Below, one piece after another: positions 28,160 through 29,111 of a stretch of 64,000 nucleotides of DNA. The notes under the pieces are model-generated. The model was not told where the DNA came from. It searched no databases and worked only from the letters and a program-made list of their open reading frames with translations. The stretch lies in NCBI RefSeq assembly GCF_053078305.1, contig NZ_CP166879.1; one strand, given 5' to 3'. Position 1 is the first letter of the stretch. Each line of letters opens with the position of its first letter. The position numbers were made by a program, and so were the translations under genes.

Positions 28160-29111
28160 TTTATAGTCCTTACTTTATAAAATTCACAGGAAGAGGGGAA
28201 TTACGTAAATACTGAGAGTACATAAACGCCGTACCACGGCATTAATAAACGAGGTAACCAGCAGTACAGACAACCTGATAAAACTGTTTGGTATTACCTC
28301 ATTACAATGAGGTAATACTTCAGAATACAGTGAGGCTCTCTTAAACAGAGGACCAGTAAGAATTACAATGGCAAAAACACACCTCATAGAATTAAGTTTA
28401 AGGAAGTACCATTCAATCACTTACAGGAAGTAATCTGATCTTCACAAAAGTCAGCTATCGAATAGCCACAGGCAACATCGCTATTAATATTGCCGTACCA
28501 TTAAGTAAAAACAGAGACTCTGCAGAGAGAGCCTACAGATATTTAACCTCACAATAAGAAGATTATTTCATACAGAAAATATTATATTTACCCATACTTA
28601 TAAACTGTAACGGAGCTATAACGTACGAACTAAAGACAATATACTCTAATAGTGTTCTGGTACGTAACTAGTGTTAAATACGAACCAGACACACACTCAA
28701 TGGATTAACTTTCTCAATATTACGCTATGAGTGAGTGACATAATTTACACATAACTAATCCCCATACACCACCACACTGTAGCATATGGGGATAGACGCA
28801 TTACGCACATACAGAATACTCAGCATAAAGAGGAGTGACATTACGATAGAAAGAGACAACATAACAGATAACATAACCCCCATTAATAATACTAATTAAC
28901 CTAAATTATTTATTGAATACGAAAACAATGAAGGCCCCACCTCACCTCAGACTAAAGCCGACAATATCCTGAGCAACAGGATATCCAATAGTAAATAGTG
29001 GTTACACCAGTTATATTTACTGACTGACCTGTACCAGAGTTTTCTAATACAACGCTGACATGGTAAAGGCATTAGTCTCCTCCGCAAGTAGCAGAGGAGA
29101 CTATATGTTAG

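Follow-up and report, generated by a model that had tools for sequence, protein, structure and literature searches.

The gene-free gap between yfjI and a gp2-like gene in Escherichia coli islands: a widespread, unannotated control region, probably of a Rep-like gene

What is the role of a stretch of some 950 bp that carries no annotation in about 29% of the complete Escherichia coli genomes? We addressed this question for one copy, located in a window of 64,000 nucleotides (contig NZ_CP166879.1 of assembly GCF_053078305.1), within what appears to be a tRNA-targeting, satellite-like genomic island with the core module alpA, yfjI and gp2. The gap comprises 952 bp (28160-29111) and reaches from the stop codon of a YfjI-family gene to the start codon of a gene for a Gp2-like protein; genes and elements located below by window coordinates lie on the minus strand unless the plus strand is named. 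A preliminary description had singled out the part 28421-29111 as an AT-rich, non-coding tract between YagK-like and YfjI-like genes, of a kind that may carry regulatory RNAs or silencing sites. Our analysis shows the tract to be a real, widespread, unannotated and largely ordinary control region. With a probability of roughly 55%, we interpret it as a promoter/operator followed by a lineage-specifically expanded untranslated leader of the Gp2-like gene, whose product resembles HUH Rep proteins. This would explain what occupies the blank stretch.

This interpretation rests mainly on a motif of 17 nt, AGGTTAATTAGTATTAT, at 28886-28902. It is unique in the window, where 0.12 matches are expected at up to three mismatches. 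For the comparison, 42 loci from species-representative genomes, based on an alignment of the Gp2-like protein, and metagenome loci were used (loci are given as L numbers). Outside Escherichia this short motif was the only detectable part of the tract. It recurs 5' of the Gp2-like gene, without exception on the sense strand of that gene, in about 30 loci of many genera of Enterobacterales (Escherichia, Citrobacter, Klebsiella, Enterobacter, Lelliottia, Serratia, Yersinia, Brenneria, Budvicia, Kluyvera, Buttiauxella, Edaphovirga and others). The motif is thus clearly conserved and apparently undescribed so far. A scan of viral contigs gave about 50 matches, which is near the chance level for a 17-mer so rich in AT; L074 and L089 (Escherichia type) alone were clearly true, and L067 and L086 possible. 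In L050 the motif occurs a second time (4583-4599 of that locus), about 1.6 kb away on the downstream side of one gp2-like gene, and a leader-like sequence of the Klebsiella type follows it; this points to modules that are in tandem or nested.

The motif ends in the hexamer TATTAT (28886-28891), a -10-like element of the TAnnnT type. Variants of the motif include AGGTTAATTGGTATTAT and TTTGGGTTTTTAGTATAAT; every one of them keeps at least one TAnnnT hexamer (TATTAT, TATAAT, TAGTAT, TAATGT), and one group has an extended -10, TGn-TATTAT. In most genera the motif is situated in a divergent intergenic region of 300-450 bp, and the operon consists of gp2 followed by an alpA-like gene. This operon needs a promoter in the divergent region, which speaks for a promoter role of the motif. 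In alleles with another upstream gene than yfjI (L008, L114, L116), the homology starts about 40 nt upstream of the motif, which indicates that motif, leader and gp2 form the functional unit. The distance from the motif to the start codon is 117-195 nt in most genera and 583-803 nt in Escherichia-type alleles (743 nt here). The promoter scan predicted no sigma-70-like promoter on the sense strand in the interval from the motif to gp2.

We therefore looked upon the tract as a sequence of steps that would lead from yfjI to gp2. A strong hairpin would close the yfjI transcript. About 210 nt further on, the motif would most likely act as core promoter and operator of the gp2 operon. Transcription from about 28879 would then yield a putative untranslated leader of 726 nt (28160-28885, counted from the hexamer to the start codon), which could be understood as a lineage-specific expansion of the leader of 100-190 nt in other genera. 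This leader would carry a weak terminator-like element near +330 to +375, a possible attenuator, and end at the ribosome-binding site of gp2. The element encodes an AlpA-family protein (31141-31389). One protein of this family is known to work as an antiterminator that is loaded at the promoter: acting just upstream of the -10 element, it allows read-through of leader terminators (PMC7969949). Judged by its base composition, the gp2 promoter is possibly repressed by H-NS as well.

A different role of the motif is suggested by the neighbouring protein (27566-28159, 197 aa), which according to its motifs and fold model is a putative HUH Rep-like nuclease and which RefSeq names 'inovirus-type Gp2 protein'. 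In this family H87xH89 is nearly invariant, and Y157 and K160 (YLAK, a YxxK motif) are invariant. The structure model (predicted local distance difference test, pLDDT, 87; predicted template modelling score, pTM, 0.81) found its best matches in the Protein Data Bank (PDB) among HUH nuclease/origin-binding domains, namely those of parvovirus B19 NS1 and adeno-associated virus (AAV) Rep, with probabilities of 0.96-0.99 but TM scores of only 0.3-0.38 and E values of about 1e-3. Pfam gave weak matches to PF23343 and PF11726; a PDB sequence search and NCBIfam gave nothing significant. An AT-hook-like sequence, RGRPR, is invariant at the C-terminus of the whole family (27566-27600). It lies in a low-confidence tail of the model and might bind AT-rich DNA such as this tract.

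Hence the motif could be a nick site that is cut by the adjacent protein, i. e. the nic site of a rolling-circle double-strand origin or an origin of transfer (oriT). The AT-rich tract would then be the origin of the excised island, the nearby repeats and hairpins would be binding or loading sites, and a promoter may coexist with them. HUH initiators usually act beside their own gene, and rolling-circle plasmids have a conserved nic locus and a specific bind locus, which a family-conserved motif with variable flanks would fit. Furthermore, the motif contains TAGTATTAT, which presumably resembles the nonanucleotide TAGTATTAC of circoviruses and nanoviruses. The protein with its HxH and YxxK motifs, its RGRPR tail and its best folds agrees with such a role, as do the strong enrichment of hairpins in the gap and the tandem repeats that follow the motif in some leader types. 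Yet the motif region shows no tendency to fold as a single strand (z = 0.05), so that the nick site would be neither in nor beside a conserved hairpin, and in the Klebsiella-type variant of the motif no inverted repeat is conserved on the flanks. Changes inside the motif conform to the logic of a -10 hexamer, the hairpins are variable (the large one is deleted in several alleles) and the fold match is weak. Altogether we consider an origin unlikely, though it is the main rival of the promoter and leader.

The repeats themselves differ between leader types. The leader type of about 1 kb opens with a 26-nt tandem repeat of 2.7 copies right after the motif (L057, 1562-1631; equivalents in L048 and L056), with GTAA every 13 nt and several promoter-like matches on the opposite strand. 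In L114, GGTGGTAT repeats follow the motif. In the window there are two copies of a 12-nt repeat (GTTATGTTATCT GTTATGTTGTCT; 28854-28877, found with Tandem Repeats Finder), which set in about 3 nt after the putative start of transcription; the repeat content varies between alleles, and the enrichment of repeats in the first 130 nt of the leader is weak (p = 0.03). Direct repeats after the motif reach significance in leaders of the L057/L048 and L114 types; in the window they are marginal, most families lack them, and iterons as a general feature were rejected. Likewise, an enrichment of the words GTAA and CTGT was strong only in the L057-type leader, where it reflects the tandem repeats, and marginal in the window.

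Both roles could also be combined, with the motif as promoter core and at the same time nick site or origin of uncharacterised satellite-like islands that are driven by an HUH Rep, and with the leaders as captured DNA or attenuator modules. We regard this as very unlikely. If it were true, the unrelated leaders of 350-1150 nt, which in different lineages set in about 30 nt 3' of the motif, would consist of DNA that was captured when rolling-circle replication started or ended aberrantly at this site, or, alternatively, the long leaders would be selected attenuator modules that are read through by AlpA-type antitermination. The motif would then mark the switch by which replication is controlled in elements that are a major vehicle for the defence systems of Enterobacterales.

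Returning to the promoter with its untranslated leader, the part downstream of the motif was compared across the family. Three unrelated long leader types exist (about 350 nt, 570-790 nt and 1000-1150 nt), which have in common only the first ~30 nt and the last ~45 nt. The downstream end (28157-28175) consists of the ribosome-binding region AAGUAAGGAC (28166-28175) and the start codon (28157-28159) and is nearly invariant in an alignment of 17 alleles. In other genera, all 17 representative leaders form a hairpin of 5-10 bp that sequesters the Shine-Dalgarno (SD) sequence and has covarying arms. This indicates that leaders of the Gp2-like family act at the RNA level. The SD hairpin lies about 45 nt upstream of the gp2-like starts in L011-L057 and is preceded by an A-rich element of the AAAAATTAC type; it is covered by no Rfam family and is possibly an undescribed cis-regulatory leader. 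In the leader of the window the local SD hairpin is lost and only its left arm, CUCUUCCUGUG, remains. A predicted long-range interaction of 14 pairs, in which the U-tract of the terminator-like element (28503-28512) pairs with the SD region (28166-28175), was 98.6% paired across alleles. It was rejected nevertheless, since the sequences are invariant, so that the pairing is uninformative, and since the block is deleted in L113.

The leader itself is rich in U, G and hairpins (sense strand: T 0.39, A 0.25, G 0.20, C 0.16). Its sense strand has a minimum free energy of -200.6 kcal/mol (z = -5.8), the opposite strand of -146.7 kcal/mol (z = -4.1); the better folding of the sense strand is due to many G-U pairs. 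Across the gap, five distinct perfect hairpins of at least 8 bp were found, with a scan score of 9 against a mean of 0.28 in shuffles; the scan may count one hairpin at several loop sizes, hence a score of 9 for five hairpins. One of them, at 28758-28793, has a perfect core of 9 bp, or about 15 bp counting G-U pairs (-23.1 kcal/mol, z = -4.0). It shows one compensatory change in L004 (CCCC/GGGG to CTCC/GGAG); in L089, L112 and L113, however, the stem is not intact, and L006, L007 and L009 lack the region. In the conserved 3' part of the leader, a perfect palindrome of 13 bp, GTATTACCTCATT/AATGAGGTAATAC, lies at 28291-28318 (-15.6 kcal/mol, z = -5.3). Other alleles keep only its outer 6 bp (ATTACC/GGTAAT), and one pair is broken in Escherichia albertii.

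The terminator-like element was called by the terminator scan at 28503-28550, about 330-375 nt into the leader. It consists of a bulged hairpin (28514-28550; 13 bp with several G-U pairs) with the U-tract UGUUUUUACUU directly 3' of the stem (28503-28513), which is kept in 15 of 17 alleles. In the allele alignment 92% of the cells are paired, and 4 of the 13 pairs show compensatory changes; these values were reached by 7 (pairing) and 2 (compensatory changes) of 500 shuffles. An attenuation at this site, which we infer from these features, would thus be conceivable. Terminator prediction, proposed as a check in the preliminary description, called this element and did not call the strong hairpin next to yfjI (29073-29103).

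A promoter-like motif and a terminator-like hairpin with a U-run about 375 nt apart could also delimit an RNA of its own (about 28879 to 28505), for example an immunity RNA of the P4 type or an Hfq-dependent small RNA (sRNA). In satellite P4, a leader-derived RNA controls termination. The strong local structure of the interval agrees with such a regulator, and on the plus strand the promoter-like hexamers TAAACA-16-TACAAT (28342-28369) lie inside a conserved block, from which an antisense RNA could start. This interval is, however, the least conserved one. L006, L007 and L009 lack about 110-190 nt of it, and L113 lacks the terminator block. No seed-like block is conserved in it, the terminator hairpin is weak and the leader evolves near-neutrally. 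Rfam 15 gave only a spurious microRNA match in 26000-33000 at E <= 1 and nothing in five related loci at E <= 0.1, and none of the island sRNAs held by Rfam (Esr41 = RF02676, AgvB, AsxR, Sok) matches the tract. Esr41 of O157 sits elsewhere in the same island (SpLE1/OI-43), between z1181 and z1182. The suggestion of a discrete regulatory RNA is therefore unsupported by our data, and we regard this explanation as the least probable one. Nor is there support for a small protein or for an sRNA that acts in trans.

How much of the leader is under selection? The 400 nt upstream of gp2 have a pairwise identity of 0.81-0.99, close to the 0.80-0.97 at 4-fold degenerate sites in that gene, so that purifying selection was not seen for the 3' 400 nt as a whole. 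The 5' two-fifths carry deletions of 110-190 nt in several alleles, whereas invariant blocks of 20-26 nt are found in the 3' third; the leader is structured yet mostly weakly constrained. Insertion sequences (IS) have also entered the region: in Escherichia sp. MOD1-EC7003 an IS66-family element ends exactly at the -10-like hexamer (L010, 1-235), and in E. coli Esc12 an IS2 lies inside the leader (L115, about 2018-3245). Each of them separates the gp2-like gene from the motif. In L009 (E. albertii), gp2 has an in-frame stop at codon 58 and is likely a pseudogene; the leader is retained.

A possible interpretation of these data is that only the promoter and the ribosome-binding site have a function, and that the DNA which accumulated between them, in an island remnant no longer mobile, was captured or has decayed. 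Mutation bias would then account for the low GC content and the strand skew, and H-NS would bind merely because the DNA is AT-rich. The divergence near that of 4-fold sites, the frequent indels, block deletions and IS insertions, the three unrelated leader types with only their ends in common and the gp2 pseudogene in E. albertii all fit this explanation, as does the same skew towards T in the gap upstream of alpA (T 0.41). They have to be weighed against a hairpin excess and folding z-scores well beyond those of shuffles, the invariant blocks in the 3' third and the compensatory changes in one hairpin. Moreover, long leaders arose repeatedly and independently in the gp2-like family, which hints at selection. 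It seems quite unlikely to us that the tract is a spacer of this kind; at its key points, with a promoter-like motif and a structured leader, we take it to be regulatory rather than junk, so that the preliminary interpretation is partly supported.

Several findings nevertheless weigh against a promoter with a regulatory leader. No -35 element is recognisable, as the best candidates 16-18 nt upstream match TTGACA at one or two of six positions; the promoter at the motif would hence probably be activator-dependent. The promoter scan does not call the motif site, and some groups of variants have, in one register, lost the A from the second position of the hexamer. The AlpA-binding element of Pseudomonas aeruginosa, GGGACGN5GGTA between -35 and -10, is not present; the conserved element at its place is the unrelated AGGTTAATTAG. 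The terminator-like hairpin is thermodynamically ordinary (-11.7 kcal/mol, z = -0.9), and its block is deleted in one allele (L113). Over the 406 columns of the 3' alignment, the covariation term of RNAalifold amounts to only -1.4 kcal/mol. Finally, most of the leader appears to be dispensable, as judged from the deletions and the IS2 and IS66 insertions, and the expansion of about 570 nt may have no function of its own.

Could the gap contain a gene after all? Within 28421-29111 the longest open reading frame (ORF) from start to stop has 46 aa, which agrees with the earlier claim that no ORF of 60 aa or more is present, and none is conserved. The longest stop-free stretch there measures 54 aa, compared with an average of 70 in shuffles, and is usual for the composition; the scarcity of long ORFs is thus predicted by the base composition. 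A 78-aa ORF with a GTG start occupies 28184-28420, which is why the preliminary description let the tract start at 28421. It has no Pfam match and no RefSeq annotation in any homologous locus, and it is frameshifted in other alleles by indels of 1, 2 and 8 nt. The gene-free tract of about 700 bp was hence correctly recognised, but the true gap is wider. A 42-aa ORF, whose ATG falls within the putative promoter, has no Pfam match either and is likewise frameshifted in other alleles. Hidden genes were therefore rejected, as was a locus for a small protein or a type I toxin, because no ORF is kept in frame among the alleles.

The low GC content of 28421-29111 was borne out as well (0.366, with a window mean of 0.493; only 3% of windows of 691 bp are equally low). 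In the 952 nt of the gap, T is the most frequent base (367), followed by A (237), G (194) and C (154). From the composition alone, silencing of the AT-rich tract by H-NS is plausible.

The end of the gap next to yfjI seems to belong to another unit. The strong hairpin with which we began lies 9 nt past the yfjI stop codon (29073-29103) and has a perfect stem of 10 bp (29073-29082 with 29094-29103) and a loop of 11 nt. As minus-strand RNA it reaches -25 kcal/mol (z = -7.2), and it is invariant in all yfjI-linked alleles. It is not followed by a U-tract. We assign it to the 3' end of yfjI, because the yfjI-proximal 89 bp are found alone in other genomes (megablast match H30) and because the homology of alleles without yfjI starts near the motif. 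It is likely a 3'-end stabiliser or a terminator without U-tract of the yfjI module. The perfect 8-bp hairpin reported earlier at 29075-29101 is thus real and extends to 10 bp, but it is part of the yfjI module and not of the gp2 control region. Between yfjI and the motif there are two further perfect hairpins of 8 bp (28964-28984 and 28990-29021, found by the hairpin scan). The first one is broken in other alleles, which have GGATAGAGTG instead of GGATATCCTG, and is hence not conserved.

The tract is widespread. Megablast detected it, with identities of 80-99%, in 1585 of 5426 complete E. coli genomes, of which 651 have it in full length; no feature is annotated under any of the listed matches. 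A lack of conservation in related elements, which the preliminary description had named as evidence against its reading, was thus not observed. Among the genomes with the tract are O157:H7, sequence type 131, avian pathogenic E. coli (APEC) O78 and O104:H4. The O157:H7 copy is located at the integrase end of the urease-carrying island that adjoins phoH, which we take to be SpLE1/OI-43. The tract is absent from K-12, and no homology to the gaps between yfjI and yfjJ (152 bp) or yagL and yagK (271 bp) of that strain was found. The phage records searched gave no match; nine matches in a plasmid collection are E. coli records with the same island, in which nothing is annotated. An origin from a phage or plasmid, or a cos-like site, was rejected on these grounds. 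In the literature on yfjI, yfjJ, yagK and the O157 locus tags we found nothing on this region.

The genes on both sides were identified as expected, i. e. a YagK/YfjJ-type (Gp2-like) and a YfjI-family gene. The latter (29112-30578) encodes a DUF3987 protein (PF13148, E = 1.6e-83) and is annotated by RefSeq at a homologous locus. The module further contains the gene of the AlpA-family regulator (PF05930, E = 2.1e-13), its order being alpA, a DUF3987 fragment, yfjI, the gap and the gp2-like gene. AlpA-like genes adjoin gp2 in other genera, too. Between alpA and the full-length yfjI, an ORF of 75 aa (30809-31036) duplicates the N-terminus of YfjI with about 64% identity to residues 2-96; RefSeq calls its equivalent a partial DUF3987 pseudogene. 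Upstream of alpA there is a second AT-rich, gene-free gap (31390-32059, 670 bp), which has the lowest GC content in the window (0.346) and the same bias of T over A on the minus strand. A regulator site common to both gaps was searched for, but nothing beyond chance 8-10-mers was found.

Directly downstream of gp2 the cargo differs by strain (L001, L004-L008, L110-L116) and includes the archaeo-eukaryotic primase (AEP) of a TOTE system, which is often decayed, a KAP P-loop NTPase, Zorya ZorD, a group II intron and IS elements. This site looks like a hot spot for cargo or defence genes. In the window, short ORFs past the gp2 stop codon (27156-27464) resemble fragments of a core gene, and neither a tRNA (ARAGORN, 0 genes) nor an integrase was found in the 64 kb. 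What is left of the island here seems to be truncated, ending near 27500. Published work describes islands that carry an AlpA-like excisionase together with a Rep-like HUH initiator (bioRxiv 10.1101/2025.09.15.676423); that report contains nothing on this non-coding region.

Islands with alpA, yfjI and an HUH Rep-like gene bring defence systems into tRNA-linked hot spots of E. coli and its relatives. The motif and the leader provide a sequence tag for finding such modules and a target that can be mutated to study promoter, antitermination and origin functions. The evidence does not indicate a new kind of mechanism, and several known systems come close. The leader of the left operon of P4 contains the CI RNA and confers immunity by means of seqA and seqC. 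Similar to it, the tract belongs to a satellite-like island and would provide a long untranslated leader with termination signals before a replication gene. Unlike in P4, no conserved CI-like RNA, no complementary triplet of the seqA/B/C type and no sequence similarity were found.

With rolling-circle double-strand origins of the pMV158 and pT181 types and with the origins of CRESS-DNA viruses and parvoviruses, the locus has in common an HUH-type gene beside an AT-rich non-coding region, a family-conserved sequence, variable repeats, hairpins and an overlap with the promoter of the initiator. In contrast to these origins, the motif is not in the loop of a hairpin, the repeats are absent in most relatives, and the protein is a nuclease-only one of 197 aa with weak fold similarity, known here from its sequence. 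The leaders of the 17 Gp2-like genes from other genera are similar to leaders that sequester the SD sequence, such as the inhibitory stem of the rpoS type and RNA thermometers; the Escherichia-type leader of the window differs from them, as it has no local hairpin and only the CUCUUCCUGUG arm.

The comparison with AlpA antitermination at the promoters of alpB and PA0807 in Pseudomonas aeruginosa (PMC7969949, PMC9371919) bears on the promoter and leader favoured here. There are differences: the motif is unrelated to the AlpA-binding element, no -35 element can be recognised, the terminator is weak and dispensable, and the leader, so far described by computation, has 726 nt instead of tens to a few hundred nt. 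The arrangement, on the other hand, is alike. In both systems a gene of the AlpA family belongs to the module, a conserved element lies directly upstream of the -10 hexamer, and an untranslated leader with terminator-like structure precedes the regulated genes.

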